Made by a program: the position numbers and the translations under genes. DNA of 64,000 nucleotides from a virus. Positions within the stretch are counted from its first letter, which is position 1; every line of letters begins with the position of its first letter. Below are positions 11,535-57,977 of the stretch, piece by piece. The stretch lies in the IMG/VR virus record IMGVR_UViG_3300045988_154892; one strand, given 5' to 3'. The notes below the pieces were generated by a model. That model made no database searches and had not been told where the DNA came from. It saw only the letters and a list, made by a program, of their open reading frames with translations.

Positions 11535-14500
11535 ACCGATTCTAAAGCCATGATTTGTGCTTTAAGGCTATTTATGTTGTTATTCTGAGAATTAATCTTC
11601 TTAGAATAGTCGTACATATCCTTCTGCTGTGTCAGGGCTTCTTTTCTCTTGCTGATTATTTTATCAAGATAATCAACCTCTGTACTCATAGCATTCTTAT
11701 ACAGATCAACCAGACTGTCCTGATATGATTTCACATCTGCAATCGAACCTTGAATACCTTCACGGTAATCTTTTGACTTGTCATTATATTCCGTTAAGGA
11801 AATAACCCCATTGTCATAAGACTCTTTTAGTTTTTGCAGACCCGTGGTATAATCTGCAATTTTTTGTTTTGCCGTACCAATACTCTGCTGTAAGAGAGCA
11901 ATCTGTGCCAGTCCCTCTTCCGTGATACGTCCTTGTTTATCAAGGAATGCATCATCGTTCAGAAGGTCGCGGAAACTTTTCAGCTCATCTTCAAGGTCAC
12001 TATATTTCTGGATGGCATCGTCAAGTGGCTTAAAACGTAGTTCATAGATACTATCTTGAAGAGATTCATTGTCCGTAATCAGTTCCAGAGTATTTTCTTT
12101 TAGCGTTTGAATCTTTTCTGCATAATCTTGATACGATTTAGAATTGACATCAAGAACCGCCTGTTTCTGCCGGTATATTTCCATCTGCTTTAGATTCTGC
12201 TGTACCTGAGCGTTATTATTATCTATACGGTCAGTGTATAGATTCTCTGGCACATCACGATTCTGGGATTGCAGGTAAGAAATATATTTCTCCGTAATAT
12301 CCGAATTACGTTTGATTCCGTCAATTACATTCTGAATAGTATCAATTTTAATCTGATCCAATTTATCCCGTAGTTCAAGAAGGCTGGTAGAAGCATCATA
12401 AATCTTAGCTGTGAAATCTTGAATATTTTTCATAGCAGATTGATAAGCTTCGGAACCTTTCTTAAGATAACCACTGGAAAGCTGTGAATCTACTTCTTTC
12501 TGATAATCGGAAAGCTTTTTGGTAAGCTGATTATAAGTATCTTCCTGTGCTTTGATGGATTTATTGATGCTTGCATAGTTGTCTGGATTGTCGATAGCTA
12601 CGCCTAGAGCATCATTCAAGGATATTTTGGAATTTGCTACGTCTTTGATTTTATCATTGATGTCTACGATCGCATCATATTCTTTTTCAATGATTTCCAG
12701 ACGTTTCTCAGCAAGTTCGGTAATTTTATCTTCGAGCTTGGCTACGTTATCAGCAGCGGATTCATATTTACTGTAGTAGTCCTTATACTCATCAATCTTT
12801 TTCTTCAGATCCTCGTTGGTTACTTTTTCCACATCAAGTGTGCCATTCTGGATTTTAGAGATATAAGAAGGATCAAGCCCCACGTTCGCCGCAAGCTGTA
12901 AATACTTGTTGGCTGACTGCTGATTTGCAGTTAATTCCTGCTGAACTTTACTGATAGCGTCATATGCTTTTGTCTGCTTCTGTGCCAGACCGATAGCACG
13001 ATCAATGTTATCAACTGCAATCTCAGTAGCACGAGACATTTCCTTAAGAAATACTTCTATCCAGTCGAAGGTTTCCTCGGTTGCTTCTTTGGTGGAAGAA
13101 CCACCGGATGAGGATCGAGTTGAATCACCAGAAGATGATCGAGAATTAGAAGAGGCGCGTGTAGACGATCCGGAGCTACTTGAACCTGAAGAGGATTTGG
13201 AAGAACTTGTCTTATCTTTGTTCTTCTCTGATGTCATCACACCAGTATTCTTATGAATACCAGGAGAACCATTTCCAAGTACCAATGCTGTACCAGATGC
13301 GAAAGATCCGCCTTGTATTTTTCCCCTTCCACCACCAGACGTTACATAGCCGTTCTTAAGCAATTCTTCTGACTGACGATTATTGAATACAATTTGACCT
13401 TTCTTGATATTAACAAACTCAGCGCCATTATCACCAACGGTTCTCCATGTACTCGTAGCTGGATCAACAACAATCTCAGTACCTAATTCTCCGACAAGAG
13501 AAGTGCTTGACTCTTTTGCTCCCCAATTGCCCGATGCATATGCCGTTCCAAGAGAATGAGCCGTGCCGTTTACTTTGTGTTTTCCAAAACCAAATATATT
13601 AGCACCAACAGAAACAACTTTAGATACAACTCCTTTAATAGCAGATGCAAGTAAAGATACTTCGCCAGTACCGAACACATTGGCACCAACAGAAACAGTT
13701 TTTGATTTTACACCAGATATTGCATTGAATAAAGCATCAACAAGATCTGTCCCTTTAACATTTCCTGTAACATCTACATCTTTATTCTTAACATTATCTA
13801 TCGAATCACTTAGCTCAGATACCTGATCCTGTCCTGTCACGGTGGCATTAACTGATAGATCTGTATTTTTTGCAAGAAGATCATTAAGCCAATCAAAAAA
13901 TTGCGAAACTTGTGTCCCGTCAAGCTTCGGTGACATTGTAACAGTTTTCTCTGCTGGAACACTGTTCTCCATAGCCGCATCTAACTTAGATGTATCTCCA
14001 TCGACATGCATCTTGATTTCTTTTTCAGACAGTTTATCTAATGACTGCTCAAAAGAATTAACATCATCAGTGTTGATATTAAGGCTTGCCACAAGATCAT
14101 TGTCCTTTAGATCAGAGTATAAATCCTGTACTTTTTTCTCTGCTTCTGATGTGTCAATGTCAAAGCCCATATCTTTCATTTGATTCTGGGCATTCAAATC
14201 CTCATAAGCCTTTTGGAATTCCTGGAGCTTATTGATTGTCTCAGTAGATTCTTCGGAAAATTTACTTGTATCAATTGTCATTACTGCAGGTTGTTCCAAT
14301 TCCTGCTTCTCGATTAGCAAATCTTTTAAAGCATTGTATGCTTGTAAGACATTGATATTTCCTAAATCTAATGTACCATCGTCATTCTTTAGATTCTCTA
14401 AAGCCGTCTTTGCATTTTCAATATTTGCATCAATATCAATCGTTGTTGATTTATTATCTGTAGCTTCTGTTAAATTATCAACCTTTTCTTTTGCTTTGGT

Positions 14501-17221
14501 TGTATCTGCATCGACATCGATAACACCATTAGCATGTAATTGATCTCCAAAATTCTTATAGTCAGATTTATATTGATCACTCTGATAATATTCTGCCCAG
14601 GACTTTCCAGAATCAATAAATGCATCATTCATATATTTCATAGCGTCATAAACACTAGAAATTTGTCTTTGAATTGCATTCTTTGTGTTTTCATCTGTAG
14701 CATTCGACAGATTCGCTTTTAGTTCATCAATATAAGAAGCAGCTTCCTTATATGCGTCAAGATTTGCAACATCACTCGTATTAGCGCTTTCTGCTTGTTT
14801 AAGATATTGTTTCTTAGATGCATTTAATTCTGCCCAGGTTTGATTATCCCCACCTTCGTCAGCAGTATTCTGCAACTCGTCAATCTGCTGCTGAATAGAA
14901 GCAAGACTGTATTGAAATTGAATATTAACAACAACATCATGATCTGTTAATGTTGAAAGATCATTTTCATATCCCGCTAATTCTTCATCCCATCCGTCAA
15001 TAAGTTTTTTATACCGATCTTTTGTAGCTCCTTCTTCCATAGAATCATAAATAGTTTTGATTCCATTTAAAGCTGACTTGTATTGATCTAACTCATCACC
15101 AGACCAAACCATATCATTAAATTCTGCACCGTAAGCCTCCAGATTATGCATCAAAACTTCTACGGCGCTTACGCTTATTCCTAATTTGTCGGCAGCGTCA
15201 GCACTGCTGTTAAAATTCTCCGTCCATTGAAAATCATTATTACCATCTGCAATAGCAAGACCAACATTCTGAAGATCCGTTAAGAAATTTTCTGCACTCT
15301 GGAATTGATCCTCATTGTCAAAATATCTCTTAACTTTGTCCTGCGCTTCTTTCCAAGCTGCTTCATAAGCCTGTGCATCAAAAGTGAATCCATCGTCTGG
15401 ATTAATTTTCTTTTGAGTCATGAACTGGGCCGCTTCTTTAAAATCATCCGTGCCAATCTGACCATTCGCAAACAATTCGTCAGCTTGAGCAAGATATTCC
15501 GCCATTGTTTTCCAGGATTTATCTTGATTATCCGTATTAAAAGCAGTTGTAACACTTGACAGACTTCCTTCTACGGTGTCAATTGCATCAGCAGCATCTT
15601 CAGCAGCCGATGCGGTTTCTTGAAGATAAGATTGTAAATCAGAAATATTATCAATTCCAAGATCGTCTAATGTAAGACCCATGCCAGCAAGAGCTTTTTG
15701 CAATTCTTCAGCGCTGCCAGCAGATTCTTTTAATTCTGCTTTAAGAGCATTCTTGCCAAAAGAACCATCGAAGAAATCACTGAGAGAATTTAATGCTTTC
15801 TGTGCGTCTGTAAGATCTTTATCAGTAATTGAACGAAGCATCTTCCTGACTTTTTCAAAATACGGCTCGTAACCAGATAGTGCAGTCAAACCCTCTCCAT
15901 TTACAGAAAAAGCATTTAATATATCTGTAAAATCAGATGCCTTATCTTGAAGTTCATCTTCAATAGAATCTACCATTTTTTGAAGTTTTGCTTCATCCTT
16001 TTCGGCTTTCTTTCTGTCTTTTTCAGATATACCTTTTTGTCCCTGTTTTTCTATTGCTTTATCTAAAAGATTTTGGTATTCTTGGTAATATGCCAAGTAA
16101 GACTCAAGAGAGCCTTTAGTATAATTAATGTCATCCTCAGTATACTTTTCTACATCAACACCAGGATTTTTAAAGAAATCTTTCATCTCTTTATTAAGAG
16201 ATTTTGTACTTAGGCTCCACAATTGCTCTGGCATATCCATATATTCAGCTTTTTCTAACAAATCTTTTGCGTCATTAGCTGCTTTTCTTTGTTCTGATGT
16301 CACGAGCTGTTCTTTTAGATTTAATGTTCTTTCTAATTCGTCATTGCCAAGCTGAATTTTTTCTATTTCAGTCTGATCAACTAAAGTAAGTTGTATGTCA
16401 TTGGCGGATTGGATTTTATCAATCATCTCATCAACAGATTCGGTACCTTCTAATGCAACATTATAATTAGAAGCTATTTCCTGAAGAGTCTGTTTATATT
16501 GATCAGCCTTTGCATTTAGATTTTCTACTTCTTTTTGAGCATTTTGTAAGTTTGTAACATGCTCTTTAACATTTTTCAGGTTTGTATCATATGTAAGATT
16601 GTACTTATTATCTGCCCATTTAAATAGTTGATAAGCAGCAATTGCCGTGCCGACAGCCGCAATAATTGGAAGCATTGTTTTCAGAGTAGCAAGCAATCCT
16701 TTGAAATAATTCGAAAGATTAGAAAAAGCTGTGCCAGCTTTTGATGCAGATTCTGGGAGTTCAACGATAGAGTCACCTAATTCTGCATTTGCATTAATAA
16801 TCTTTTTTACTTGCTCGTTATATTCTGCGGAACCTTCTTTTAGTTTTCCTAATAAATCTTCTTGTTCTAAAGTTAACTTGCCTTGATTTTGTAGAGCCTT
16901 TACTAATACTGGAGCATTATTTGCAGAATCTTTTATAGCATCTGCATAAGTTAGTTTGCCAGTTGCAGCTTTGGCAGAAAGCGTCGCATCGCTTGCTAAA
17001 GCTAAAGCTTGGCTCCTTAATTCTTTATTTAATCCTAAAACATTTGCTTTTGCTTCTATTTGCTCTGAATTAAATTTACTAATTCCGTCTGATCCAACAC
17101 CGAAAGTTGCATTAAATGAATCTTTTAAATAATTCTGAAAATCATCATATGATCCTGCTTTTTTAAAACGTTTTCCACTTAGATCACCAAAACTGCCAAA
17201 TATATTTCCCAGATCTTTAAA
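11535..17221 (-). CDS. Tape measure protein, exon 6 (about 1895 codons)
   Basis: Huge coiled-coil-rich ORF with a hydrophobic segment (LLATLKTMLPIIAAVGTAIAAYQLF) and a Ser-rich linker. The track start is a TTG at 17257 with no SD. The last 46 track residues (VNICRICLNAG...) are intron read-through. The upstream boundary (17221-17254) is uncertain. Confidence 0.7.
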
Positions 17222-17244
17222 CTGCAAATTAATTGTTAATAATG

Positions 17245-17273
17245 TTGGATTTATCAAACAATTATGATATAAT
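17245..17273 (+). promoter_or_regulatory. Sigma-70-type promoter with extended -10, for the zinc-ribbon gene at 17301
   Basis: TTGGAT, a 17-nt spacer, then TGaTATAAT. About 37 nt are near-identical to the second copy at 18098-18135. It overlaps the putative 3' end of TMP intron 5 on the other strand. Confidence 0.6.
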
Positions 17274-17300
17274 ATAGGAAATATTGACGGAGGTGATAGT

Positions 17301-17879
17301 ATGTCAAAAGTATTTTGCCCAGAATGTCAAAATATAGTAAGCAGTTATGCTGAGACATGTCCTGATTGTGGATTTCCGATTTCAAAATATATAAAAGATG
17401 CAAAACTTAATGATTTTTCAAAAACGTTTGTATGTCCAAAATGTGGATCGTTTAGCACAGCAACAGATGTAGTAGCAACTATTCAATGTGATTTCTGTGG
17501 TACGCCAATGTTTCAAACGTCTGAGTCAACGACAATTACAATTTCAAATACATCATGGCCTAAAACAGAAGACGAAATTGATTCATATATTTATTCTCTT
17601 CTCGAAAAATGTGACAAAGTAGAGGAGTATGATATAGAAGCGCATCGAATTTACAAACAAAAATTAAGAGAGAGGGTAATGGCTCGTCGCAAGCAACAAT
17701 CTAATCAGCAATCCCCTGCACCACCATCCACTAATCAACCTCACTGTCCAGTATGCCAATCCACAAATATCGAGAAGATTGGCATGTTTAAGCGTATGCT
17801 TTCTACCAGCATGTTTGGAATTGCATCTGATAAGGTAGGGAAGCAGTGGCATTGTAAAAATTGTGGGAATAATTTTTAG
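17301..17879 (+). CDS. Triple zinc-ribbon protein, paralog 1 (192 aa)
   Basis: SD GGAGGTG. Motifs CPECx10CPDCG, CPKCGx17CDFCG, a Q/P/S linker and a C-terminal HCPVCQST..HCKNCG. Paralog of 20330..20917 along its whole length. Confidence 0.75.
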   Translation: MSKVFCPECQNIVSSYAETCPDCGFPISKYIKDAKLNDFSKTFVCPKCGSFSTATDVVATIQCDFCGTPMFQTSESTTITISNTSWPKTEDEIDSYIYSLLEKCDKVEEYDIEAHRIYKQKLRERVMARRKQQSNQQSPAPPSTNQPHCPVCQSTNIEKIGMFKRMLSTSMFGIASDKVGKQWHCKNCGNNF

Positions 17880-17881
17880 GA

Positions 17882-18082
17882 TTACTCCTTGTCTATCTTC
17901 AATTGTTCCACAAGACATTTCATTTTCTCCTGCAATATACGCTGCTCTTCAGTAAGAGTAGATGGATCAGTATATATGGAAGGATAATCAGTCTGCGGAA
18001 ATGGATAATCTATGATTGAATTTGCCATAACATATTTGTGGAATTTTTCAAGCCCATAATCAATTAAAATACTATCGTACAT
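17882..18082 (-). CDS. Hypothetical 66-aa protein (convergent with 17301..17879)
   Basis: Internal ATG at 18082 follows GAGGTGAATATAAA. The track ORF begins earlier, at 18121. No recognisable family. Confidence 0.45.
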   Translation of the reverse strand: MYDSILIDYGLEKFHKYVMANSIIDYPFPQTDYPSIYTDPSTLTEEQRILQEKMKCLVEQLKIDKE

Positions 18083-18104
18083 TTTATATTCACCTCTAGA
18101 AATG

Positions 18105-18133
18105 TTGGATTTATATAACAATTGTGGTATAAT
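18105..18133 (+). promoter_or_regulatory. Sigma-70-type promoter with extended -10, for the lipoprotein gene
   Basis: TTGGAT, a 17-nt spacer, then TGgTATAAT. Duplicate of the 17245 promoter. Confidence 0.6.
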
Positions 18134-18162
18134 TTAAAATTATCAAATATATAAATAAGCGG

Positions 18163-19263
18163 ATGGGAAAATACATGAAAAGAAAACACACAATACGGAT
18201 AACAGGTCTTTTATGCTTTTCTTTTTTTATTACAAGTTGTGGACAATCATCTGCAACATCAGCTTCTAGTGTAATCAAAGAGGCAGTTAATACTGATAGC
18301 ATCAAACAGATTATTTCAGAAGATAATGAAACGACTGACACAGCTATAGACGTTTCAGATCAATCAAGCAATTTAACAACAGATAAAGTGTCAAATGTAA
18401 CATGCTCATGGGAAGATAGTGAAGTACCAATAGAAGTTGGAAATGATAATTCAAAAGCACTAATTAAAGATACAAGAATTGTTAATTCTTCATATGGCAC
18501 ATTACTGATTATGGATTTTACATATACCAACAATACTGCGCAAGCATCAGATTTTATTAATGATAGCAATTGTGATGTAAAACCATATCAAAATGGTATA
18601 GAATTAGATAGACCAGGGATAACATCCGAAGCGGGTGTTTATGATTATAGTGATGCATTTACAAATGTAAAAGATGGAGGAATAATAAATACGCAACTTG
18701 TATGGGTTCTTAAAGATACGATGAACCCAGTTGAAATTGATTTTGGAATAGATTCAAATTACAATCCTGCATATTCAAAGACATTAACTTTAACTGTCGG
18801 CAAAGACATTGAAGATAAACAAGATGAATCGCAAGAAACAAAAGAATCCGATTATAATATATCGTGGCTGAATGACAATGTACCAGAAAAAATTGGAAAT
18901 GATAATTCGTATGCAATATTAAAAAATACATCTGTTTTGAAATCCCCGTCATATGGAATCGTATTAGTAATGGATTTTGAATACACAAATAATCTGGATA
19001 AAGCTAGAAATTTTATCAATAACACACCATGCCTTGTAAAGATTTATCAAAATGGTGTTGAATTAGATAGTCCTGGAAATACATCGGAACAAGGAATATT
19101 CGATTATTCTAATGCGTTTACTGGTGTAAAAAATGGTGGAACATTAAAAACACAGTTGGTTTGGGTTTTACCAGATGATAAAAGTCCCGTAGAAGTCGAA
19201 TTTGGTTTGGATAATAATTATAAACCACAATATGATTGTACATTAAACATTTCTGAAAAATAA
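18163..19263 (+). CDS. Lipoprotein with two tandem ~140-aa beta-rich repeats (DUF4352/DUF5067-like)
   Basis: Signal peptide plus lipobox (LLCFSFFITSC|GQ). Clear internal duplication: SWEDSEVPIEVGNDNSKALIKDT..MDFTYTNN..YQNGIELD..QLVWVL versus SWLNDNVPEKIGNDNSYAILKNT..MDFEYTNN..YQNGVELD..QLVWVL. The start could be 18163 or 18175. Confidence 0.75.
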   Translation: MGKYMKRKHTIRITGLLCFSFFITSCGQSSATSASSVIKEAVNTDSIKQIISEDNETTDTAIDVSDQSSNLTTDKVSNVTCSWEDSEVPIEVGNDNSKALIKDTRIVNSSYGTLLIMDFTYTNNTAQASDFINDSNCDVKPYQNGIELDRPGITSEAGVYDYSDAFTNVKDGGIINTQLVWVLKDTMNPVEIDFGIDSNYNPAYSKTLTLTVGKDIEDKQDESQETKESDYNISWLNDNVPEKIGNDNSYAILKNTSVLKSPSYGIVLVMDFEYTNNLDKARNFINNTPCLVKIYQNGVELDSPGNTSEQGIFDYSNAFTGVKNGGTLKTQLVWVLPDDKSPVEVEFGLDNNYKPQYDCTLNISEK

Positions 19264-19306
19264 ATTGGTTCACAATATTTAGTATAATGTGGGGAGGGAA
19301 AACTAC

Positions 19307-19924
19307 ATGGCATTAATCAAATGTCCAAAATGTGGTCGTGAAAATGTTTCTAATTCTGCTGAAAGGTGTCCGTCATGCGGATACAATATTAAGGAATACT
19401 ATGACAAGTCGCATGAAAAAGACAATGAAAATAAAAGAATTGTATTAGGTATAGGTATAGTAATATTAGTCTTTGCAGTCCTTTTCCTTAAGAAAGAATC
19501 GTTCACTACTCATGACGCTGATCCTTTTAAAAAATATTATTCGAACTTTGGAAAGGATATTTCGACTGTTAATAAATCTAAAAAATACATAATAAGTTCA
19601 ACATCTGACCATAAAGGAATGTTGGTAAACAATTCTGTTAAAATATGGAATATAGATGGAAAGTTATTATTGGTAGCTAACGACCAAGATGATGATGAAC
19701 TAGGACTTTTAATATGGAGTGCGGAAAATGTTGAATTAGATAATACTCAATTAGATCATATAATTGAAAAAATGGATAAATTATATGGTAAAAACACTTA
19801 TCATTACGATATTGAAAATGATTTAAAAGTATATGATTGGGATGAACTATCCAATATGAAAATTGAATTGTTTTATCGTCCCTGTATTAAAACGATGATG
19901 ATAAGTTTTTCAACAAATGAATGA
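19307..19924 (+). CDS. Zinc-ribbon membrane protein (205 aa)
   Basis: ATG at 19307 follows GGAGGG. CPKCGx11CPSCG is followed by one TM helix (IVLGIGIVILVFAVLFL) and an extracytoplasmic domain. A TATAAT lies at 19283-19288. Confidence 0.65.
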   Translation: MALIKCPKCGRENVSNSAERCPSCGYNIKEYYDKSHEKDNENKRIVLGIGIVILVFAVLFLKKESFTTHDADPFKKYYSNFGKDISTVNKSKKYIISSTSDHKGMLVNNSVKIWNIDGKLLLVANDQDDDELGLLIWSAENVELDNTQLDHIIEKMDKLYGKNTYHYDIENDLKVYDWDELSNMKIELFYRPCIKTMMISFSTNE

Positions 19925-19941
19925 TAAGGAGATTTAACGTT

Positions 19942-20277
19942 ATGAAATGTACAGAATGTGGCAAGGAATTAACAGCAGAAGAGCAGAGCCAAGGAACTTG
20001 TTCATCTTGCGGGAAAAAGATTGAAACTCCGGCAACATCCAATACATCGGAAGAAATTTATACAACGCTTGTTGGACAATCATTGAAGATTGTGGGAATA
20101 ATTGTTCTAGTAGGTGGTTTTATTGGATCTTTCTTAATAGGAAAAGATGATTATGGTTATCTTTCTTATTCTAGCTTTTTCTTTTATCTTTTTGTATCTG
20201 TTATCGGTGGTTTGCTGATTACAGGTATGGGCGAAATTGTTAATTTTCTATATACCATTTGCAAAAAGCTAAAGTGA
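19942..20277 (+). CDS. Zinc-ribbon membrane protein (111 aa)
   Basis: ATG at 19942 follows AAGGAG. CTECGx13CSSCG is followed by two hydrophobic helices. Confidence 0.6.
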   Translation: MKCTECGKELTAEEQSQGTCSSCGKKIETPATSNTSEEIYTTLVGQSLKIVGIIVLVGGFIGSFLIGKDDYGYLSYSSFFFYLFVSVIGGLLITGMGEIVNFLYTICKKLK

Positions 20278-20329
20278 TGTCGTATAGACTTCAACTCAAC
20301 TAGGAAATATTTACGGAGGTAATATCTAT

Positions 20330-20917
20330 ATGAGTAAAGTTTTTTGCCCTGAATGTGGAAAAATTTCAAGTCAATATGCAGAAACTTGTCCTGATTGTAG
20401 TTTCCCAATAGCCAAATACGTAAAAGACGCCAATCTTACAGACTTTTCAAAAACATTTGTATGCCCTAAATGCGGTTATTGGAGCGCCATGAATAGCATT
20501 GCTGGCGAAATTATGTGTGAATACTGCCATCTTCCTATGTTTCAAACAGATGAAGATGGCGATGTAACTCTAAAAGCAACGTTAAATATGAAATCAAATG
20601 AAGAAAAAGATGCTTATATTTATTCTCTTCTAGAACGTTGCGGTAAAACAGATGAATATAGTGAAGAAGCTCATCAAAATTTCCGCCGCAAATTACACGA
20701 ATGGGCAGAAGAGGAGCGTAAAAAACCGAGCCAACCAGTTTCGCAGCAGCAATCTACTCCTTCATCTACTAATCAACCTCACTGTCCGACTTGCGGTTCT
20801 ACCGACATCATCAAAATCTCAGCAGCTAAGAAAGCTGTAGGTGCTGGGCTGTTTGGCTTGTTCAGTAAAACTGCTAAGAGTCAGTTTGAATGTAAAAATT
20901 GTGGTTATAAGTGGTAA
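20330..20917 (+). CDS. Triple zinc-ribbon protein, paralog 2 (195 aa)
   Basis: SD GGAGGT. Begins MSKVFCPECG.. like paralog 1 and has the same three Cys4 modules. Ends ..HCPTCGSTDI..ECKNCGYKW. Confidence 0.75.
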   Translation: MSKVFCPECGKISSQYAETCPDCSFPIAKYVKDANLTDFSKTFVCPKCGYWSAMNSIAGEIMCEYCHLPMFQTDEDGDVTLKATLNMKSNEEKDAYIYSLLERCGKTDEYSEEAHQNFRRKLHEWAEEERKKPSQPVSQQQSTPSSTNQPHCPTCGSTDIIKISAAKKAVGAGLFGLFSKTAKSQFECKNCGYKW

Positions 20918-20951
20918 AATTATTCTACGTATGAAAAAAGCTAAGGAACAC

Positions 20952-21146
20952 TTAGACCTGATGCATTGGGAATTGTTCAAACATTTTGAATATTAATTCG
21001 ATATTAACTTTGTCTGATCCAGCAAAAAGTGGAGGTAGTGGTTTGCCGTTTTTATCATAAATTGTTTCACATAGAATAATATCATAATCGCCACATGATT
21101 CTTTTTTATTTGGATCAATATTTGACACATATGGTTTATTATTCAT
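20952..21146 (-). CDS. Hypothetical 64-aa protein (convergent with 20330..20917)
   Basis: ATG follows GAGGTAACAAAAA. No family recognised. Confidence 0.5.
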   Translation of the reverse strand: MNNKPYVSNIDPNKKESCGDYDIILCETIYDKNGKPLPPLFAGSDKVNIELIFKMFEQFPMHQV

Positions 21147-21186
21147 TTTTTGTTACCTCGGAAAACATAAAAGAAAATTTTATAGT

Positions 21187-21357
21187 AATAAAAACAAAAA
21201 CAGCAAACTTGCTATTCCACATTGCCCTGCATGTGGCAGCACAGATATAGAGAATATCAGCACGTTAAATAGAGCTGTATCAACTGCTATGGTAGACATT
21301 GCATCGAGCAAAATTGGCAAACAATTTCACTGTAAGAATTGTGGATATGATTTTTAA
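21187..21357 (+). pseudogene. Start-less fragment of a third zinc-ribbon paralog (C-terminal module only)
   Basis: My translation gives ..KNKNSKLAIPHCPACGSTDIENISTLNRAVSTAMVDIASSKIGKQFHCKNCGYDF*, homologous to the C-termini of 17301 and 20330. There is no in-frame ATG/GTG/TTG upstream back to the stop at 21085-21087, and no SD. Confidence 0.5.
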
Positions 21358-21390
21358 GATAACCATAAAACATAAGAGAGGAAAATTGAT

Positions 21391-22125
21391 ATGATTAGTG
21401 TAAATGACTTGAAATATACAACAGTATTTATTGCTGATAATACTGAAGAACCAAGACACTCTTTTACTGGTTTTATCATAAAATTAGCAACATCTCAAGG
21501 AGAATCATATTTCCTTTGTTCTTGCGGTCATTGTTTTGACAAAAATATTATGAATATATCTTTTGTTATATCCGCTATAGACGAAAACGAAGAAATGTCA
21601 GGTATAACTTTTAATATAACTGTCTCTCCTATAAAACATCCTTCTCTTGATATCGCCTATGTCGATATAACAAATACAATAATCAAGGCCTTGAATAAAT
21701 ACAATATAATTTTTCATTTTATAGAAGAATCAGACATTATTTTAAATGATGACAGATCAAGTTTTAATGATTTGGAAGATGTCTATCTCGTTGGCTATCA
21801 AGCAGCATTAGGGTACACAATCTTAGCGTATCCTTTTATTATTAAAGGAAATACTGCATCATCTATTCAGTTCAACTTTCAAAACGGATTCTTCACTTAT
21901 GCCAATACCAAAGAAGGTTTAAGTGGATGCCCAGTTTATATCAAAGTTAATGAAAAATACAAACTACTTGGCATACATCATTCTGCTAAAATACGTTCTC
22001 TTAAAATTACTACAGACGAATTTGAAAAGAAGTATGAAGAAAGTCTTGGTCTTTCTCAGGAAGTATATGCGTTTTATATACTTGATTTTATTAGAGAACA
22101 ATATCCTCTTGTGACGGAGAAGTAG
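21391..22125 (+). CDS. Trypsin/chymotrypsin-fold serine protease, cytoplasmic (244 aa)
   Basis: SD GAGAGG. Triad candidates are His in SCGHCF, Asp in LDIAYVDI and Ser in EGLSGCPVY, followed by LLGIHHSA. No signal peptide. Confidence 0.7.
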   Translation: MISVNDLKYTTVFIADNTEEPRHSFTGFIIKLATSQGESYFLCSCGHCFDKNIMNISFVISAIDENEEMSGITFNITVSPIKHPSLDIAYVDITNTIIKALNKYNIIFHFIEESDIILNDDRSSFNDLEDVYLVGYQAALGYTILAYPFIIKGNTASSIQFNFQNGFFTYANTKEGLSGCPVYIKVNEKYKLLGIHHSAKIRSLKITTDEFEKKYEESLGLSQEVYAFYILDFIREQYPLVTEK

Positions 22126-22432
22126 CTATTTGATAAACAGATTTAACACTTTGATCACCACAAACTAGATGAGTAATAGTATCTGAAGCTTTTGTCATTT
22201 TTAAATTAGTAATTGTAATTTTTGGCTTTTTCATAAAATGATTTTTTGCATTGGAGAAAATTTTATATGGGACAATTTCCTTATCAATCAGTCCATAGTT
22301 ATATAAAGACTCCATATTTTCAAAAAAATATTTGATTGTATTATACTCATTAGTGGTTAATTCTATTGTGTGTATTGTTTGTATAGATTCCTGATGATCT
22401 GTTTTGTTTGCTGTTTGATTGATAATAATCAC
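22091..22432 (-). CDS. Hypothetical 113-aa ORF, convergent with and overlapping the protease 3' end by 35 nt
   Basis: Fills the whole gap between the two protease genes. GTG start with no good SD. The first 10 codons and 5' leader are conserved with 23099..23422 (MIIINQTANK). Confidence 0.4.
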   Translation of the reverse strand: MIIINQTANKTDHQESIQTIHTIELTTNEYNTIKYFFENMESLYNYGLIDKEIVPYKIFSNAKNHFMKKPKITITNLKMTKASDTITHLVCGDQSVKSVYQIATSPSQEDIVL

Positions 22433-22460
22433 CTGCTTTCTAATTAAGGAGAAGTAAAAT

Positions 22461-23129
22461 ATGCTTACAAAAGAGAATTTGATTCATACTGTAACAAAAA
22501 TTACTGTATTAAAAGAAAATGATGAATGTAAAATTGGTACAGGATTTTTCTATAAATACCATGCAAATAATCGAGAAAATTATGCATTAGTCTCGAATAG
22601 GCATATATTTGAGAATATGAAAAACGCTTTGTTTTCTGTCCCTATTGAGCAAAACGATCAAGTGAATCTTCTAAACAATGAAATACGTATCCAACCATAT
22701 TTACATCCACAATATGACGTTGCAGTAATTGGAATAAATGATCTAATCGATTCACCAGAATATGTAGGAAAGCTAAAAATATCTTGGATTATAAAAGAAG
22801 ATATTATAACGGAAGATTTTCCAATATCTGCAATTGAATATGCGTTAATGATTGGATATCCGTTATCATTTCAGTCTGATAATTTTGTCACTCCACTTAT
22901 TCGAAGTGGCGTTATTGCGACACCTCTAAAATCAAAATTTAATGGATTGGAACGTTTCCTTGTGGATATGGAATGCTTTAGTGGATCAAGCGGATCACCA
23001 ATATTTATTAATCGTGATAGTCAATATTATTTAGTAGGGATTGAACAATCAAGCTATTCGTATAAAGAAAAAGAAGTTGGTCTTGGAGAATGCGAAAACT
23101 ACAATGTACTTTCTTCATTCTTGCCATAA
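22461..23129 (+). CDS. Trypsin/chymotrypsin-fold serine protease, second copy (222 aa)
   Basis: SD AAGGAG. His in VSNRHIF, Asp in YDVAVIGI, Ser in FSGSSGSPIF, then LVGIEQS. No signal peptide. Only distantly related to 21391. Confidence 0.7.
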   Translation: MLTKENLIHTVTKITVLKENDECKIGTGFFYKYHANNRENYALVSNRHIFENMKNALFSVPIEQNDQVNLLNNEIRIQPYLHPQYDVAVIGINDLIDSPEYVGKLKISWIIKEDIITEDFPISAIEYALMIGYPLSFQSDNFVTPLIRSGVIATPLKSKFNGLERFLVDMECFSGSSGSPIFINRDSQYYLVGIEQSSYSYKEKEVGLGECENYNVLSSFLP

Positions 23130-23422
23130 TATTTTACAAGAATTGTCTTATAGAGGGACTCAAATTGATTTTTAGATACTTGATTCGTTTTTAACGAGTC
23201 TACAATATCAAAATATGCCTTTTTAATACGACTATCGGTTTTTCTTTGCATTAATACAGCAGATAATATATCAATATCATTCCGTAGCATTCCTTCTCGT
23301 ATATATATTTGATTATCTGAATTAATATATACATATGACATATTTTGTGAATTTAATTTATCTGAAGACACAATTCTTGTTTCTATCTTGTTTGCTGTTT
23401 GCTGAATATTAATAATAATCAC
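23099..23422 (-). CDS. Hypothetical 107-aa ORF, convergent with and overlapping the second protease by 31 nt
   Basis: Same arrangement as 22091..22432. GTG start and the shared leader GAAAG(Y)AGGTGATTATTAT. Confidence 0.4.
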   Translation of the reverse strand: MIIINIQQTANKIETRIVSSDKLNSQNMSYVYINSDNQIYIREGMLRNDIDILSAVLMQRKTDSRIKKAYFDIVDSLKTNQVSKNQFESLYKTILVKYYGKNEESTL

Positions 23423-23460
23423 CTACTTTCATAAAAAATTTTAAGAAGAGGATAAAAGAT

Positions 23461-23559
23461 ATGTCATGGAAAGGTAGAGTCAGAAGAAGTATGCAGCCAT
23501 GGCCCTGGTGGGCTATAGCGTTGTTATTCTTTGTTGCATTTTTGTTGAAAATGTTTTAG
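23461..23559 (+). CDS. 32-aa basic/hydrophobic peptide (MSWKGRVRRSMQPWPWWAIALLFFVAFLLKMF)
   Basis: My own translation; the ORF is below the track cutoff. SD AGAGGA lies 8 nt upstream. One TM-like helix after an Arg-rich N-terminus. Confidence 0.45.
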   Translation: MSWKGRVRRSMQPWPWWAIALLFFVAFLLKMF

Positions 23560-23703
23560 AAGTGGAAGAGAAGAGTATTGGAAAGTTATATTTCCATATT
23601 CTCCTCAATTTAATGTTTACTGGCACATTTCAGCCCACGCACATCCTATAGACGTACTATATTTCGATATGGATATTTTATATGACTTCCATTTGTCAAT
23701 CAT

Positions 23704-23925
23704 CTATTTTACCGTTTTTCTGTTTTCGAAACGGTTAATAGCATCTATGCTAGATTTTACATTACGAGAGAAAAAATCATTTGCTTTTTTAGGATCTAAG
23801 ATAAATGCTTGATCAGAAGACTCATCTTTTACGTCTTTATTTCCAATTATAGTTACACATGCATCAATAATACCATCTGGATCAGATTCTAATATTTCAA
23901 ATACTAATTTAGATTTAGATTCCAT
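23704..23925 (-). CDS. Hypothetical acidic 73-aa protein
   Basis: ATG follows GAGGATGTGAAAGC. It lies immediately downstream of the structured 5' segment of intron 5. Confidence 0.5.
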   Translation of the reverse strand: MESKSKLVFEILESDPDGIIDACVTIIGNKDVKDESSDQAFILDPKKANDFFSRNVKSSIDAINRFENRKTVK

Positions 23926-24440
23926 GCTTTCACATCCTCTATTGTTATTCTGTAATTTGACGATAAATATCTATATAATTTTCCTATTATTTTCCAACAA
24001 CGCCAGAAATAGGATAAAAAGCTGGCGTGTGATGAGAAAGCATCACAACTTTCGCGTACCGTGGAACATGCATTCAACGCATATAAACTATGGCATTATA
24101 TACGCTGGAGGAAGGGTGTTCTCTCTACTCCTCCCAACTTTCATATGCTTCGCTCGTCATTATGATTTTATTTTTAATTTCATAATTGCTGCTAACGTTT
24201 CACATATTACTATACGTAGTTAGGTTGGCTCGTGCGTTCTCGCGGAATTTTCATCCATTTCACTGCATTATTGCAGAATAGCGAATTCGACGAATTGATC
24301 CTCTATTTATTTTTTACAAGCACTAATCTCCCTACGTTGAAATATCATTCCATTGCTATGATATTCTCCGCATTGATAAGCCAGTTTACGATAAACTATA
24401 GCCAGGATTTTGGCTAACCTATGCTTGATATAAATTTAAA
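23926..24440 (-). ncRNA. Structured ORF-free RNA segment, the putative 5' (core) part of TMP intron 5
   Basis: About 515 nt with many perfect hairpins on the - strand: UAGCCA-AAAUCC-UGGCUA, CUGCA-AUAA-UGCAG, GGAGGA..UCCUCC, GUGAUG-CUUUCU-CAUCAC, CGCCAG..CUGGCG, and a GCGAAAG element. Similar in size to ORF-less intron 4. P1 is not clearly canonical. Confidence 0.45.
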
Positions 24441-24614
24441 ACCACCAAGTGCTGTTAAAGCTGTGCCAAGTGGCCCAAGTGTTTCAGTAATTTTAGTAAG
24501 AATTTCTAAGAATTGTGTTCCGCTATCTATGACAGCCTTGAAAGTGTCTGATGATAGAACAGAAGTTGAAAATTCTTGGAATGTAGCCTTGAATCTTTCA
24601 AGACTGTAATCGAT
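24441..24614 (-). CDS. Tape measure protein, exon 5 (58 codons)
   Basis: My - strand translation is IDYSLERFKATFQEFSTSVLSSDTFKAVIDSGTQFLEILTKITETLGPLGTALTALGG, typical of the segment after the TP901 core. The frame stops 8 codons later (FKFISSIG*, stop at 24416-24414). The 3' boundary is either 24441 or 24417. Confidence 0.65.
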
Positions 24615-25157
24615 CGTTATATTAACAATAGTCGCTAATTATTGTTTTGTTGTATATTATATATAGGAATGATACACAATAAACTCATACCTTCGCATGA
24701 GAGTAGACTATTTCTTAACCACACTCTAAATAGAAGAGCAGCAGTCACACCTTTTCGATTTAAAGGGATCTCACCTACGTTTATAGCGATTACGCCCTAC
24801 GAGTATTGAATTAGATATTCGAGATTTCCACTCTTATTTTTAATATTCTCTGTATAAATAAGAATATTTTCTAATTCCCGACATGGCTCTAGTCGTTGAA
24901 GATTTTCCCTCGACTTAACTAACATTTGATCAATGTATAACGTTAGGGAACTTTCCTGCATGAACAGCAATTCCTGATTTATATAAAATCAGTAAACTTG
25001 ATACTTAGGCTTTTGACCATATATCATCCTTACGTTGTTTCTACTTTAGTCCCATCATAATATGATTTCTCCATTATTGTGGTGTAAGGCTTTACGCGTT
25101 ACCTGCAATTAAATGTGTTCTTTATGCACATTTCTGTACATACGGGTATACGAATTT
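24615..25157 (-). mobile_element. Group I-type intron (TMP intron 4), 543 nt, ORF-less
   Basis: The 5' exon ends ..AAGGGU and the intron ends ..AUAUAACG. Splicing joins ..ELANYQKG|IDYSLERF.. in frame. Hairpin-rich with no ORF. Its P1 candidate GGGU/ACCC at nt 11-14 has U-A instead of U.G. Confidence 0.6.
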
Positions 25158-25499
25158 ACCCTTTTGGTAATTAGCTAATTCCTTTTCGGCGGAGCCTTCG
25201 GAATTTTCCGCTGTTTGATATGCTGCCTTAATAACATCTACGTTATTCAGGGCGGCTGCCAGACTATTCGACTGATTTTTGCCGGCTAATATTTCAAGAA
25301 GTGAAGCACGGTTGATATCTGTCATATCTTGCCATTTTTCACCAATACCTACAACAATGTCATAAATATCCTTGAAATTATCTTTATCTTTCATGATGTC
25401 AAAGCCACCAGTTAATGCTTTGACTTTAGCTTGTAGTTTCGAAGTAGAAGTTACTAAACCTTCAGTATCTTCACCCATAGATTCAAGCTCGGTGTCTGC
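25158..25499 (-). CDS. Tape measure protein, exon 4 (114 codons, TP901-core segment)
   Basis: ADTELESMGEDTEGLVTSTSKLQAKVKALTGGFDIM..ASLLEILAGKNQSNSLAAALNN..ELANYQKG. The track ORF 25122..25523 adds intron read-through at both ends (TTG start, tail KFVYPYVQKCA). Confidence 0.75.
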
Positions 25500-27424
25500 C
25501 ATTCTGTTACTTTCATCTGACAAACAGATTACTGACCATAATATAATTATGGCGATACGTTATTTCTAGCGTATTCTCACGTTTCATATTTAAGGGAATT
25601 ATTGCGTGACGATTACAGTTATATTAACTATAAAAGAAATCTTATAGATTTGATCGGACTGTATATTATCGTTTCCTATTTATAAGGAGAGCGAGATAAC
25701 TTCAATTTATATGTTACCATATAAATCCTGCAGTCTCTTGGGATACTTATAATTTCACATATTATTTGTACTTATAATACCAATTATAACCACCAGAATA
25801 ATGTCTCCCAGAACAAAGTGCTGACGAAATATGTTTTGCTCCAGTGGCATCAATTGCTTCCTTAATCGTTGAGTATTCTGCAATGAAATTACCATTCTTA
25901 TCAAATTGAATTACTGGAGAATAATCTCTTCTTCTATAATTCTGAGGATATGTTGTTTTTCCATAATGAATTGCATCATATATACGGTGCTTCGTATAAC
26001 CAAGCATGTTTTCACAGTCAAAAACAGAATATCCTTGATTTAATAAAATTTGAACCTTTTGCTCATCTATTTTATTTGAATAATCGAGATCAATATATGA
26101 AGGCACAGATTGGATGTCAGGGAAAAATAATTGAATCATTTCCAAAACTGTATAATCTCTCTGATCTACTGCGTAAAAATTATATCCAATAGATTTCCAA
26201 TATTTTTCTTTGATTTTATCTTTTTGCTTTTGGTCTTCAAAGTCATGGAACCAACTCTGTATTTCAATTGCGATCTTTTGATTATGATTAACAATATCCG
26301 TTGGCAGTGGATGATTGGTATCTGGATTAACACATGATTTATCTTCAACAACAGTATCTGGAAATTCATGTAACCAAACTTGTTTTAAAACTAAAGCATG
26401 TGTTGATTCTAATTGGTTACATTCACAATGAGGACATTTTGCACCTGTTTTATTAGTAGATAAATTATCTTCACTTAAACATCTTTTTCTATTAATATTA
26501 TTCCAACTATTATAGAAGGTACGACCGCATTTCAAATGTTTTATCAGTAACTTTTCGTCTCTATTTTTAAAATGTTCCGATAAACAAATATATTCACCAT
26601 TTGTATTCTTATTGAGAAATGTATTTATATTTTGAATAGAATATTTATTCGACTTTGCTATTGGAAATGGATAACATTTATTCATTATTTGATTGTATAT
26701 CACATCATATAAATACCCATTATCGTCAAGACACGTTAAAGGTGATAGTGTTATCCCTTTAAAATCTGATTCTTTAATCTTAAGGTAAAATCCATGCATT
26801 GATAAATTATTCTTAATATCGTTATACGTCAGATTCTTAGTATATCCTGAACAAGTATCACACTTATTTTTATGTCCTTGTCTTACTGAGTCAAAAGTTG
26901 TTTGAAACAAATTTCCGCATTCACATCTAAATGTTAAAATACTATTTGAATTTTCATATTTTCCAGAAACATAAGTACATTTGCATTCTTCTTTATGCAA
27001 CTCTAAATAATGTTGGATATTGTATTCAATATCAGGATTCGATTTATGGAATCTAACCGGTTTCTTTGTTGTATGTTCTAGTTTGTTAAAACATGGATAT
27101 ACAATATACCCTTCCTGATCGTAACACCGAAATTTTGAATATGAATTTTTGTATTCTCCACTTATGTAAGTATATCCATATTGTTTTAAAAGTTCCACAA
27201 TATTTTCATCTTTATGTGATCTTTTGTCGTCCATTTAATTTTACCTTTCTTTTAATAATTCATTTTTATATTCTCTTAATGATTAGAAAGGTATTGATAA
27301 ATTTATTCTAAAATTATAAGTCTTTCCTACGTCTCTGGTGTTCCCTCACCATTTGACATATATAGTTATCCTCTATGCTATTTTTAAAGTGCTGCATAGC
27401 ATACAAACTTTCCTTGTATGGAGG
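25500..27424 (-). mobile_element. Group I-type intron (TMP intron 3), 1925 nt, with homing-endonuclease gene
   Basis: The 5' exon ends ..GAGGU and pairs with intron nt 10-14 GCCUC. The 3' end GAAAGUAACAGAAUG is identical to that of intron 2. Core blocks (GACUGCAGG..AUAUGGUAACAUAU..CUCUCCU, AGUCCGAUC, CACGCAAUAAU..AAACGUGAGAA) are shared with introns 1 and 2. Confidence 0.7.
25762..27234 (-). CDS. Intron-encoded homing endonuclease (Zn-finger modules + PD-(D/E)XK-like core + C-terminal IENR/NUMOD-like DNA-binding repeat), 490 aa
   Basis: SD AAAGG. Repeated Cys-rich YxxGxYxNS..F.C.CG modules. IAIEIQSWFHDFED is nuclease-like. The C-terminus VIQFDKNGNFIAEYSTIKEAIDATGAKHISSALCSGRHYSGGYNWYYK is an intron-endonuclease repeat type. 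Confidence 0.7.
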   Translation of the reverse strand: MDDKRSHKDENIVELLKQYGYTYISGEYKNSYSKFRCYDQEGYIVYPCFNKLEHTTKKPVRFHKSNPDIEYNIQHYLELHKEECKCTYVSGKYENSNSILTFRCECGNLFQTTFDSVRQGHKNKCDTCSGYTKNLTYNDIKNNLSMHGFYLKIKESDFKGITLSPLTCLDDNGYLYDVIYNQIMNKCYPFPIAKSNKYSIQNINTFLNKNTNGEYICLSEHFKNRDEKLLIKHLKCGRTFYNSWNNINRKRCLSEDNLSTNKTGAKCPHCECNQLESTHALVLKQVWLHEFPDTVVEDKSCVNPDTNHPLPTDIVNHNQKIAIEIQSWFHDFEDQKQKDKIKEKYWKSIGYNFYAVDQRDYTVLEMIQLFFPDIQSVPSYIDLDYSNKIDEQKVQILLNQGYSVFDCENMLGYTKHRIYDAIHYGKTTYPQNYRRRDYSPVIQFDKNGNFIAEYSTIKEAIDATGAKHISSALCSGRHYSGGYNWYYKYK

Positions 27425-52468: not shown

Positions 52469-52551
52469 TACCGGCAGCGAGACTCGAACTCGCACTGCTC
52501 ATAACAATCTGGGCTTAAACCAGATGTGTCTACCAATTCCACCATACCGGC
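52469..52551 (-). tRNA. tRNA-Leu (anticodon UAA), class II
   Basis: GCCGGTATGGTGGAATTGGTAGACAC..TCTGG-TTTAAGC-CCAGA, a long variable arm, then GCGAG-TTCGAGT-CTCGC. Two G.U pairs in the acceptor stem. No encoded CCA. Confidence 0.8.
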
Positions 52552-52586: not shown

Positions 52587-52676
52587 CGGAGCCTGTGGGA
52601 TTCGAACCCACGCGCCGTTGTTAGCGGCCTGTCAGTTTTCAGGACTGATCTCTTCATCCAACTTGAGTAAAGCTCC
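52587..52676 (-). tRNA. tRNA-Ser (anticodon UGA), class II
   Basis: GGAGCTT..TCAGT-CCTGAAA-ACTGA, a long variable arm, then GTGGG-TTCGAAT-CCCAC-AGGCTCC. As I fold it, the anticodon loop has C rather than U at position 33. Confidence 0.7.
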
Positions 52677-52686
52677 AAAACAAAAA

Positions 52687-52770
52687 TGAGCAGAGTAGGA
52701 GTCGAACCTACGGTGTTTCTAATGTGACGGATTTACAGTCCGTTGCTATCGCCACTAAGCACATCTGCCC
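52687..52770 (-). tRNA. tRNA-Tyr (anticodon GUA), class II
   Basis: GGGCAGA..ACGGA-CTGTAAA-TCCGT, a long variable arm, then GTAGG-TTCGACT-CCTAC-TCTGCTC. Confidence 0.8.
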
Positions 52771-57905: not shown

Positions 57906-57977
57906 CAGGAAGTCAGGGATTCGAACCCTGATTGACAGTTTTGGAGACTGTCGTGTTGCCAATTACACTAACGACCT
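57906..57977 (-). tRNA. tRNA-Trp (anticodon CCA) with two acceptor-stem mismatches
   Basis: AGGTCGT-TA-GTGT-AATTGGCA-ACAC-G-ACAGT-CTCCAAA-ACTGT-CAAT-CAGGG-TTCGAAT-CCCTG-ACTTCCT-G. Positions 4:69 (U-U) and 5:68 (C-U) do not pair. Confidence 0.6.

Follow-up and report, generated by a model that had tools for sequence, protein, structure and literature searches.

A 7.2-kb insert in a phage tape-measure gene as a probable group I intron with exchangeable gene cargo in its peripheral loop

Phage group I introns that house an open reading frame (ORF) in a loop of the P9 region are typified by the T4 nrdD/sunY intron with I-TevII, and those known to us carry a single homing endonuclease gene of less than 1 kb on the sense strand. 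Moron and defence hot spots combine a fixed genomic position with hypervariable accessory content, and all phage hot spots that we know of lie between genes. This report concerns an insert that resembles both, located in the tape-measure gene of a virus. It was found in a 64,000-nucleotide stretch of DNA (hereafter the window) from the IMG/VR record IMGVR_UViG_3300045988_154892 and is, in our opinion, likely to be a single group I intron bearing an island of exchangeable genes. Three published systems are also relevant. The ND5-717 intron of hexacorals and corallimorpharians reaches 18.1-19.3 kb; in corallimorpharian mitochondria it holds nearly the whole mitochondrial genome in P8 and is back-spliced (PMC6545197). 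Introns in capsid and tail genes are reported for Cluster J mycobacteriophages (PMC3706429). The nrdA gene of phage Aeh1 is reported to be split by mobile DNA, its product being assembled from separate polypeptides (PMC3045599).

The late genes of the window are encoded by the minus strand, and its tape-measure gene, which starts at 31857, is interrupted several times. The features that define the interruption considered here are as follows.

24614-24417, minus strand: exon 5, IDYSLERFKATF..TALTALGGFKFISSIG; its last base, U24417, is the putative 5' splice site
17225-24416, minus strand: putative group I intron of 7,192 nt; starts with UAG (the stop codon of the unspliced frame) and ends ..AAUUUG, with terminal G17225
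17225-17241, minus strand: intron 3' tail ..UAUUAACAAUUAAUUUG, with the terminal G as its last base
11441-17224, minus strand: exon 6, QFKDLGNIFGSFG..

An earlier, sequence-only reading of this DNA stated correctly that exon 5 runs as ..TALTALGG to 24441 and continues as FKFISSIG to a TAG at 24416-24414, that the tape-measure frame resumes at 17221 (FKDLGNIFGSFG..) within an ORF spanning 11441-17257 whose listed start is TTG, and that exon 6 is preceded by ..UUAACAAUUAAUUUGCAG. The junction that it proposed, 24441|17221, is off by 8 codons on the 5' side and by 1 codon on the 3' side. Because of the insert-free alleles, the guide pairing, and the invariant G described below, the junction is placed at 24417|17224. 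It joins ..FKFISSIG (GGT 24419-24417) to QFKDLG.. (CAG 17224-17222), rather than ALGG to FKDLG, and the terminal intron G belongs to "UUG", not to "CAG" as had been implied. Of the three explanations offered at that time, the best supported, its misplaced junction aside, is that of a giant group I intron which carries the island as cargo in a peripheral loop. It is favored because of the insert-free alleles, the U/G boundary rule, the covariation of the guide and of P3 and P7, the presence of P8, the helix that closes the cargo loop, and the lack of a start codon and Shine-Dalgarno sequence downstream. Thus, the segment from 24416 to 17225 is probably one intron, the removal of which would ligate exons 5 and 6.

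The first line of evidence is the optional presence of the insert. Island-free alleles, which the sequence-only reading had suggested as a means of locating the insertion point, exist in two relatives, L084 (protein P0052) and L085 (protein P0084), both of which are contiguous across the site and define it exactly. The DNA of L084 is uninterrupted (..CTGGAT|TCATTGAAA..; in a longer form, ..AAGAACCTGGAT|TCATTGAAAGAT..), whereas loci L105-L109, ~90% identical to it, read ..CTGGAT|CGGGG..(3.4 kb)..GAAAAG|TCACTTAAA.. (longer form, ..AAGAACCTGGAT|CGGGGAAAATCC..(3.4 kb)..GTATGAAAAG|TCACTTAAATCA..). The encoded proteins are likewise continuous: P0052 reads ..VAFFKNLD-SLKDVGNLFEGF.., with no Met at the junction, and P0084 reads ..GLFKNRD-TLTDIGSVFGG... 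The 3' end of window exon 5 aligns with ..FKNLD| of the insert-free allele. The same codon boundary is occupied in more than 30 loci of SPbeta-like gut phages by inserts that range from 841 nt (L082) to 9,052 nt (L089 and L102). Even where exon 6 is 99% identical to that of the window, as in L115, the insert may measure 3,419 nt rather than 7,192 nt.

A profile-free search with the first 330 amino acids of exon 6 against 1.84 billion representative proteins (50%-identity clusters) produced 142 matches. In most of them residue 1 of the query corresponds to residue 2 of the protein, and many begin MQFK[ED][LI]G... The proteins of dozens of relatives with 30-40% identity begin at exactly the first exon 6 residue. 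The 5' element of ~515 nt that follows exon 5 contains no minus-strand ORF, as had been claimed, and is as conserved in relatives as the exons are. Together with exon 5, this element is 94-99% identical in phages whose exon 6 heads are only ~40% identical; examples with ~97% identity on the 5' side are L088-L102 and L113. Since the 5' element is conserved while the head of exon 6 diverges, the intron frame marks a sharp recombination boundary within the tape-measure gene.

Two short repeats near the junctions were also considered. The TTTAAA reported at both edges of the island is a property of the window; relatives have TTCAAA at the 5' edge. For want of conservation it was rejected both as a target-site duplication and as a translational hop site, and in the latter role 7 kb is too far, exceeding by a wide margin any translational bypass known to us. 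The FK[ND]LG repeat was rejected as an attachment-site core or insertion duplication, given that the uninterrupted protein has both copies in tandem.

The second line of evidence comes from the boundaries, which were compared in 26 lineages. U is invariably the last base of the 5' exon, and a G directly precedes the first codon of exon 6 in 26/26. The two bases before this terminal G vary. The resulting triplet is TTG or ATG in many lineages, CAG in L118, TCG in L097, L100, and L129, AAG in L105-type loci and L151, ACG in L149, and TAG in L152. In five of the 26 lineages, the interval from the closest preceding stop to the conserved first residue contains no in-frame start codon whatsoever. 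A Shine-Dalgarno-like motif precedes exon 6 in none of the 26; for comparison, such motifs precede 23 of the 41 long ATG-started ORFs of the window and occur at 8% of random positions. In the window itself the motif is missing, as the sequence-only reading had noted for the TTG of the 17257 ORF, and it is equally missing before a second TTG at 17227-17225. Because the G is invariant, the preceding bases vary, and a Shine-Dalgarno motif is lacking, the "start codon" assigned by gene callers appears to be the terminal intron G together with two arbitrary bases. The read-through tails that follow the break differ in length and sequence across lineages, which argues that the truncated exon 5 product is not selected for a C-terminus of its own.

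The third line of evidence is a candidate internal guide near the 5' end of the insert.

24399-24416, minus strand: hairpin UAGCCA-AAAUCC-UGGCUA extending P1, immediately 3' of the 5' splice site
24376-24388, minus strand: internal guide 5'-UAAACUG|GCUUAU-3', ~36 nt into the insert

The GCUUAU part of the guide pairs with AUAGGU at the end of exon 5, with a U.G wobble at the splice site (P1); for the UAAACUG part, the partner is CAGUUUA, with which exon 6 begins (P10, seven bases). A P10 guide that adjoins the P1 guide is the standard arrangement in group I introns. The U.G wobble is present at the splice site in 10/10 lineages, and P1 comprises 5-6 bp in most of them, with one compensatory pair. 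P10 extends over 5-11 bp in nine of the ten lineage types and occurs in five covarying sequence states, so that the guide covaries with both exons across 3-9 kb of insert. The P1-extension hairpin shows a compensatory change as well (UAACCAA/UUGGUUA in L006 and L007); it was also scored as terminator-like by a simple scan. The guides (P10 part / P1 part) and the 3' exon starts are listed below.

Window: guide UAAACUG / GCUUAU; 3' exon start CAGUUUA
L006, L007: guide UUAACUUG / GUCUA; 3' exon start CAAGUUAA
L103: guide UCUUUAAACUG / GUCUA; 3' exon start CAGUUUAAAGA (longer form of the window state)
L105, L150: guide UUAAGUGG / GUCUA; 3' exon starts UCACUUAA and CCACUUAA
L151: guide AAUCG / GUCUA; 3' exon start CGAUU
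L009: guide UUUUGAAUAU / GCC; 3' exon start AUAUUCAAAA
L118: guide UUAAACUG / GUCUA; 3' exon start CAGUUUAA (longer form of the window state)

As a control for P10, every other position in the insert and in the next 6 kb was used as a mock exon start. Per lineage, a fraction of 0.00015-0.029 of these mock positions equalled the real P10 in length, the value for the window being 0.38%. Earlier splice models (GGUGGU| with GCCA; a guide GUUUAU; P/Q at AAUGCGGAG/AAUUCCGCG) were not borne out by the covariation in L006 and were dropped; the contiguous guide UAAACUG|GCUUAU explains both exons.

The fourth line of evidence is a set of core helices, followed by a helix formed between the two ends of the insert.

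24299-24303, minus strand: P3 5' strand GAGGA, which pairs with UCCUC at 24111-24107
24107-24128, minus strand: R-like element GUAGAGAGAACACCCUUCCUCC, made up of J6/7, G[A]GAAC (5' strand of P7, its bulged A in brackets), and the 3' strand of P3
24076-24106, minus strand: P8 hairpin CGUAUAUA..UAUAUGCG, between the P3 3' strand and J8/7
24063-24075, minus strand: S-like element GAAUGCAU-GUUCC (also GAAUGCAUGUUCC, 24075-24063), comprising J8/7 and the P7 3' strand
24002-24055, minus strand: two P9-region hairpins, UGUGAUG/CAUCACA and GCCAG/CUGGC
23993-24001, minus strand: 5' strand of the cargo-closing helix, GUUGUUGGA, which pairs with UCCAACA(U) at 17249-17242
17242-17249, minus strand: 3' strand of the cargo-closing helix, UCCAACAU

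The R-like and S-like elements of the window align with GUUCAGAGACUACCGAUCCUC and AUGUAUAGUCC, the textbook elements of L118, a lineage in which the P element (AAUUGCUGGGAAGCC) and the Q element (GAUCAGCAGC) at this insertion site are of textbook form too. L104 and L149 likewise have all four textbook elements, P, Q, R, and S, at the site. The P/Q pairing of the P4-P6 region is clear in the sister lineages L118, L104, L081, and L082. In P7 (G[A]GAAC/GUUCC) the bulged base adjoins a G-C pair, and P3 becomes GAAGA/UCUUC in L104 and L149. As judged by reading the sequences rather than by a formal count, a P8 hairpin of differing sequence lies at the same place in L006, L105, and L118, and P9-region stems of other sequence occupy the same places in L006 and L103.

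Pairing was counted formally in hand-registered segments of 10 lineages (alignment A3), with the partners slid by 1-3 columns serving as controls. Standard pairs are formed in 87.2% of the cells, compared with 33-44% in the slid controls; 15 pairs are changed on both sides, compared with 2-4; and the covariation score is 0.337, compared with at most 0.088. P7 is 100% paired and compensatory at four of its six pairs, and P10 contributes three compensatory pairs. In the closing helix, five of the ten pairs are changed on both sides across lineages, and the pair adjoining UUGG/CCAA is G-C, A-U, or U-A depending on the lineage. A local hairpin, GGAGGAG/UUCCUCC, was rejected: three of its seven pairs break in L006, and UUCCUC serves instead as the P3 3' strand. 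An unrestricted search for complementarity between the 5' element and the 3' segment was swamped by A+T-rich chance helices, and only position-anchored tests were informative.

These elements suggest the following layout and course of splicing. By comparison of the lineages, the first ~425 nt of the insert comprise P1 with the guide, P3, a putative P4-P6 region, P7, P8, and the two P9 hairpins. The helix 23993-24001 / 17242-17249 then closes a peripheral loop with 6.7 kb of exchangeable cargo, leaving ~17 nt and the terminal G. Late transcription would read through from exon 5; because no minus-strand terminator is predicted in the cargo, such read-through and splicing in cis appear possible. 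GCUUAU would pair with AUAGGU, and guanosine would attack after U24417. UAAACUG would subsequently pair with CAGUUUA, while the closing helix would bring G17225 to the core. Ligation would produce the RNA ..AGCATAGGT|CAGTTTAAAGAT.. encoding ..FKFISSIG-QFKDLG.., and thereby a continuous tape-measure protein once the other introns are removed. Translation of unspliced RNA would stop at UAG, the first intron triplet. Such a loop would tolerate insertions without harm to the host gene and hence behaves as a hot spot, in which accessory and candidate defence genes come with promoters of their own, most of them antisense. On this view, L082 is an ordinary cis-spliced intron with one antisense ORF in its post-P9 loop, and the window has the same frame with a far larger loop.

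It should be noted that several observations weigh against this interpretation. Boundaries, optional presence, pairings, and covariation can be read in the sequences directly; splicing, catalysis, the cis mode, and the timing of cargo expression are inferred. The registers of the pair count were hand-picked from the same sequences in which the pairs were counted. P1 of the window is short and G.U-rich. L082 has a P1 of 7 bp (GUCGGU/GCCGAC(A)), but no recognizable P10. The P4-P6 candidate of the window, UUCGUC/GACGAG, covaries partially by reading, and its registers are inconsistent in L080. The 5' element had been called hairpin-dense, for which a folding-energy z of -1.92 gives weak support. 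Because the 3' strand of the closing helix coincides with the -35 box of an antisense promoter, some of its conservation could reflect a constraint on the DNA. Moreover, head-on antisense transcription and the 7-kb gap between core and 3' splice site would make splicing in cis slow and leaky. Finally, of the P7, P9.0, and P10 elements that the sequence-only reading had singled out, P7 and P10 were found and covary, whereas the Rfam covariance model RF00028 fails to match the window element, both at its gathering threshold and with matches admitted up to E <= 10. L082, L083, and the textbook L118 escape the same model, which scores intron 1 of the window gene at just 20.6 bits; because of this poor sensitivity, its negative result is weak evidence.

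The pairings that would bring together the ends of one RNA would hold two RNAs together just as well, and trans-splicing, also proposed by the sequence-only reading, remains a sub-variant of the cargo-carrying intron. The island would in this case interrupt transcription, one RNA carrying exon 5 and the ~425-nt core and another the 3' segment and exon 6; the two would meet through P10 and the closing helix and be ligated by group I chemistry as before. The conserved antisense promoter, head-on to the late transcript, and the size of the inserts, up to 9 kb, would fit such an arrangement, and trans-spliced cox1 introns exist in organelles. Natural trans-spliced and back-spliced group I introns of organelles provide a precedent (PMC6545197). 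We nevertheless consider a two-RNA intron unlikely: the minimal insert of L082, with its 841 nt and one antisense ORF, points to an ordinary cis intron as the ancestral state, no minus-strand terminator is predicted in the window cargo, and no conserved sense promoter was found upstream of the 3' segment, which itself lies inside an antisense coding region. A related idea, which is conceivable if on balance doubtful, is that the loop acts as a regulated switch. The antisense zinc-ribbon promoter, situated across the closing helix and the 3' splice region, would gate completion of the intron or force two-transcript splicing, making cargo expression and the full-length tape-measure protein mutually exclusive. 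If so, a natural bipartite or antisense-gated group I intron would couple the expression of defence genes to virion assembly.

Two further explanations dispense with splicing. The tape-measure gene could be permanently split into two genes, with an N-terminal part that ends ..FISSIG, a C-terminal part that starts at TTG, co-assembly of the two, and intron features that are relics. This would account for the stop codon immediately after exon 5 and for the ATG or TTG at the boundary in many lineages, and reassembly at the protein level has a reported precedent in nrdA of phage Aeh1 (PMC3045599). It leaves the guide-exon covariation, which implies ongoing selection for exon ligation, without explanation, and is difficult to reconcile with five lineages that have no possible start codon in frame, one lineage with TAG at the boundary, and 0/26 with a Shine-Dalgarno motif. 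Moreover, the read-through residues are conserved neither in length nor in sequence, and the insert-free protein has no Met at the junction; two separate polypeptides, another of the earlier proposals, are in our judgment very improbable. To excision at the DNA level, by site-specific recombination through flanking repeats before late expression, as in the elements that interrupt sporulation genes, we give hardly any credence. TTTAAA at both window edges and the inverted repeat TTGGA/TCCAA that flanks the cargo could be taken for its substrates, yet TTTAAA is replaced by TTCAAA in relatives, and recombination between inverted repeats would invert the cargo rather than remove it, and the gene would still contain the ~425-nt core. 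Searches of the window cargo proteins turned up no recombinase domain, and the minimal insert of L082 encodes just a zinc-ribbon protein of 97 amino acids.

The cargo of the probable intron comprises ORFs on both strands, as the sequence-only reading had noted; there are seven plus-strand ORFs of at least 118 amino acids, and minus-strand ORFs of 73, 107, and 113 amino acids plus smaller ones. Its functions are predicted from family matches.

17250-23992, both strands: variable cargo loop, the content and size of which differ between phages with a 99% identical downstream part
17245-17273, plus strand: promoter-like site, TTGGAT at 17245-17250, a 17-nt spacer, and a TG-extended TATAAT at 17268-17273; drives the anchor gene from ATG 17301
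17301-17879, plus strand: antisense zinc-ribbon anchor gene, 192 amino acids, Pfam Zn_ribbon_3
18163-19263, plus strand: protein with two DUF5067 repeats (E = 3.4e-27) and a lipoprotein-like N-terminus
19289-19924 and 19921-20277, plus strand: two small zinc-ribbon proteins, each with a hydrophobic stretch
20330-20917, plus strand: paralogue of the zinc-ribbon anchor protein, by internal similarity and domain search
21391-22125 and 22461-23129, plus strand: two trypsin-like protease genes, PDC-S45 (E = 8.8e-19 and 4.7e-40), Pfam Trypsin_2
22091-22432 and 23099-23422, minus strand: two paralogous small ORFs, each convergent with one protease gene
23704-23925, minus strand: ORF of 73 amino acids with a Shine-Dalgarno motif, the first sense-strand gene after the intron core

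The zinc-ribbon anchor gene is always the last before the 3' splice site, with homologues at this place in L006, L007, L009, and L082, where it is the only gene of the insert. A C-terminal motif of the protein, CPxCxSxNIxKIS..GLFG..KQxHCxxCxxxW, is retained; the protein shows zinc ribbons and no other domain, and neither NCBIfam nor PHROGs assigned the protein a function. PDC-S45 is a candidate defence family. The protease genes and their partners form two tandem paralogous modules (21391-23422), in each of which the 3' end of the protease gene overlaps a minus-strand ORF of ~110 amino acids that starts MIIIN..QTANK; the modules look like a duplicated two-gene system, and the small ORFs have no family match. 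No homing endonuclease domain (LAGLIDADG, GIY-YIG, HNH, His-Cys, or PD-(D/E)xK) was found in the 10 cargo proteins of the window. The cargo of relatives includes a GmrSD_N protein (L009), Bro-N/ANT, PadR, and Spo0A_C proteins, and a protein of the metallo-beta-lactamase fold.

The promoter-like site at 17245-17273 stands as the sequence-only reading described it, and it is conserved in relatives: the motif TATGATATAAT is retained in divergent lineages, with TTGGAT or TTGGCA as the -35 box. UUGGA, in the 5' strand of the closing helix, might in turn provide sense-strand cargo genes with a -35 box, and RNA and DNA functions may overlap at 17245-17250 and 23993-24001. Promoter-like sites are no more numerous in the island than expected by chance; 36 were counted, compared with 46.8 +/- 6.4 in shuffled sequences. 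The suggestion of lysogenic expression found no support, a relative being present in only 1 of 185,579 species genomes.

The remaining parts of the tape-measure gene extend the picture of a gene rich in interruptions.

End at 29281, minus strand: exon 1, ending ..IVDKFNEV
~28972-28823, minus strand: exon 2
27470-27435, minus strand: exon 3, only 36 nt, NMWKTVSARLRG
End at 25158, minus strand: exon 4, ending ..ELANYQKG

Four further interruptions, introns 1-4, lie upstream of the island, between 24615 and 29280 on the minus strand, and their presence in the gene favors the intron interpretation of the island. Introns 1 and 4 are missing in some relatives, in which the flanking exons abut exactly at these places; exons 4 and 5 are uninterrupted in L001, L002, and L004. 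Introns 2 and 3 carry ORFs of 266 and 490 amino acids with treble-clef and NUMOD1 domains, resembling homing endonucleases. The match of intron 1 to RF00028 mentioned above is full-length and weak (gathering score 50). Introns 1-3 likewise end in G (..AAUG). At the other end of the gene, the last codons of exon 6 are apparent read-through (..ICRICLNAGISLELYML.., region 9934-11470, minus strand), followed by a treble-clef (DUF4379) ORF of 478 amino acids at 9934-11370 and an ORF of 459 amino acids at 8359-9738. Probably at least one more intron follows exon 6, and the full tape-measure protein may extend further still.

Because the relatives carry the Pfam families YomU_Tube, YomV, YomW, YomX, and YonB, they and the window are assigned by gene content to SPbeta-like phages. 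Their contigs, 50-216 kb long, derive from human gut metagenomes. The single match among the species genomes is Lachnospiraceae bacterium MD308, and one protein match is annotated as Blautia wexlerae; the host is probably a member of the Lachnospiraceae. Among public phage genomes, megablast with window positions 15000-27000 found no match, and a tblastn search with the spliced junction recovered nothing beyond the generic tape-measure core. Directly upstream of the tape-measure gene, L082 encodes a tyrosine integrase (5922-6995), and an IS605-type TnpA/TnpB pair lies upstream of that gene in L080 (6917-8442). Elsewhere in the window, a full-length GOLLD RNA (RF02032; 63303-63761, minus strand; 195.9 bits against a gathering score of 150) adjoins a tRNA at 63201-63274, and four more tRNAs, all on the minus strand, are located at 57906-57977, 52469-52551, 52587-52676, and 52687-52770.

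If confirmed, the present interpretation would make a self-splicing intron a safe harbor for kilobases of exchangeable accessory and defence genes within an essential structural gene of a phage, and hence define a new class of hot spot in phage genomes. It would also extend the range of size and content of bacterial and phage group I introns approximately ten-fold, as reckoned against the typical sizes of phage introns. The locus would provide a model for how a ribozyme locates its 3' splice site over a distance of 3-9 kb in the face of antisense transcription. There is a practical consequence for annotation: gene callers split the tape-measure protein into two or more "genes", and the "MQFK.." N-termini are probably never made. 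The intron family is widespread in human gut metagenomes and is not a single curiosity.

The claim that such an element has no described precedent holds for phages as far as we could find, but not in general, in view of coral mitochondria (PMC6545197). In the literature searched, the coverage of which was incomplete so that an earlier description is possible, we came across no description of a variable, multi-gene, two-strand cargo in a group I intron of a phage or bacterium. The Cluster J introns (PMC3706429) and introns 1-4 of the window gene share with the island intron putative self-splicing, a location in late structural genes, and occurrence as several per gene; they differ in being small or in carrying only a homing endonuclease. 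Aeh1 nrdA (PMC3045599) is likewise an essential phage gene interrupted by mobile DNA, reported to yield two polypeptides that are translated separately and assemble. The downstream part of the window gene differs in having neither a start codon nor a Shine-Dalgarno sequence, and the RNA guide pairings are conserved.

With moron and defence hot spots the island shares a fixed site, variable cargo, candidate defence genes (PDC-S45; GmrSD_N in L009), and promoters of its own. It differs from them in lying within an essential coding sequence, where it would be tolerated only because the intron frame removes it from the mRNA. Introns of the T4 nrdD type and the window family have in common a putatively complete core placed first, a loop that lies beyond P7 and contains ORFs, little sequence 3' of this loop, the terminal G, and optional presence. 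Unlike the former, the window family carries as many as a dozen or so genes (0.3-8.5 kb), most of them antisense, among which Pfam recognizes no homing endonuclease. The closest analogue is ND5-717, a group I intron that similarly holds many genes unrelated to mobility in a peripheral segment, is outsized, and interrupts an essential host gene (PMC6545197). The window differs from it in that the loop follows P9, the host is a phage, and the cargo is accessory, encoded on two strands, equipped with its own promoters, and variable between near-identical phages.

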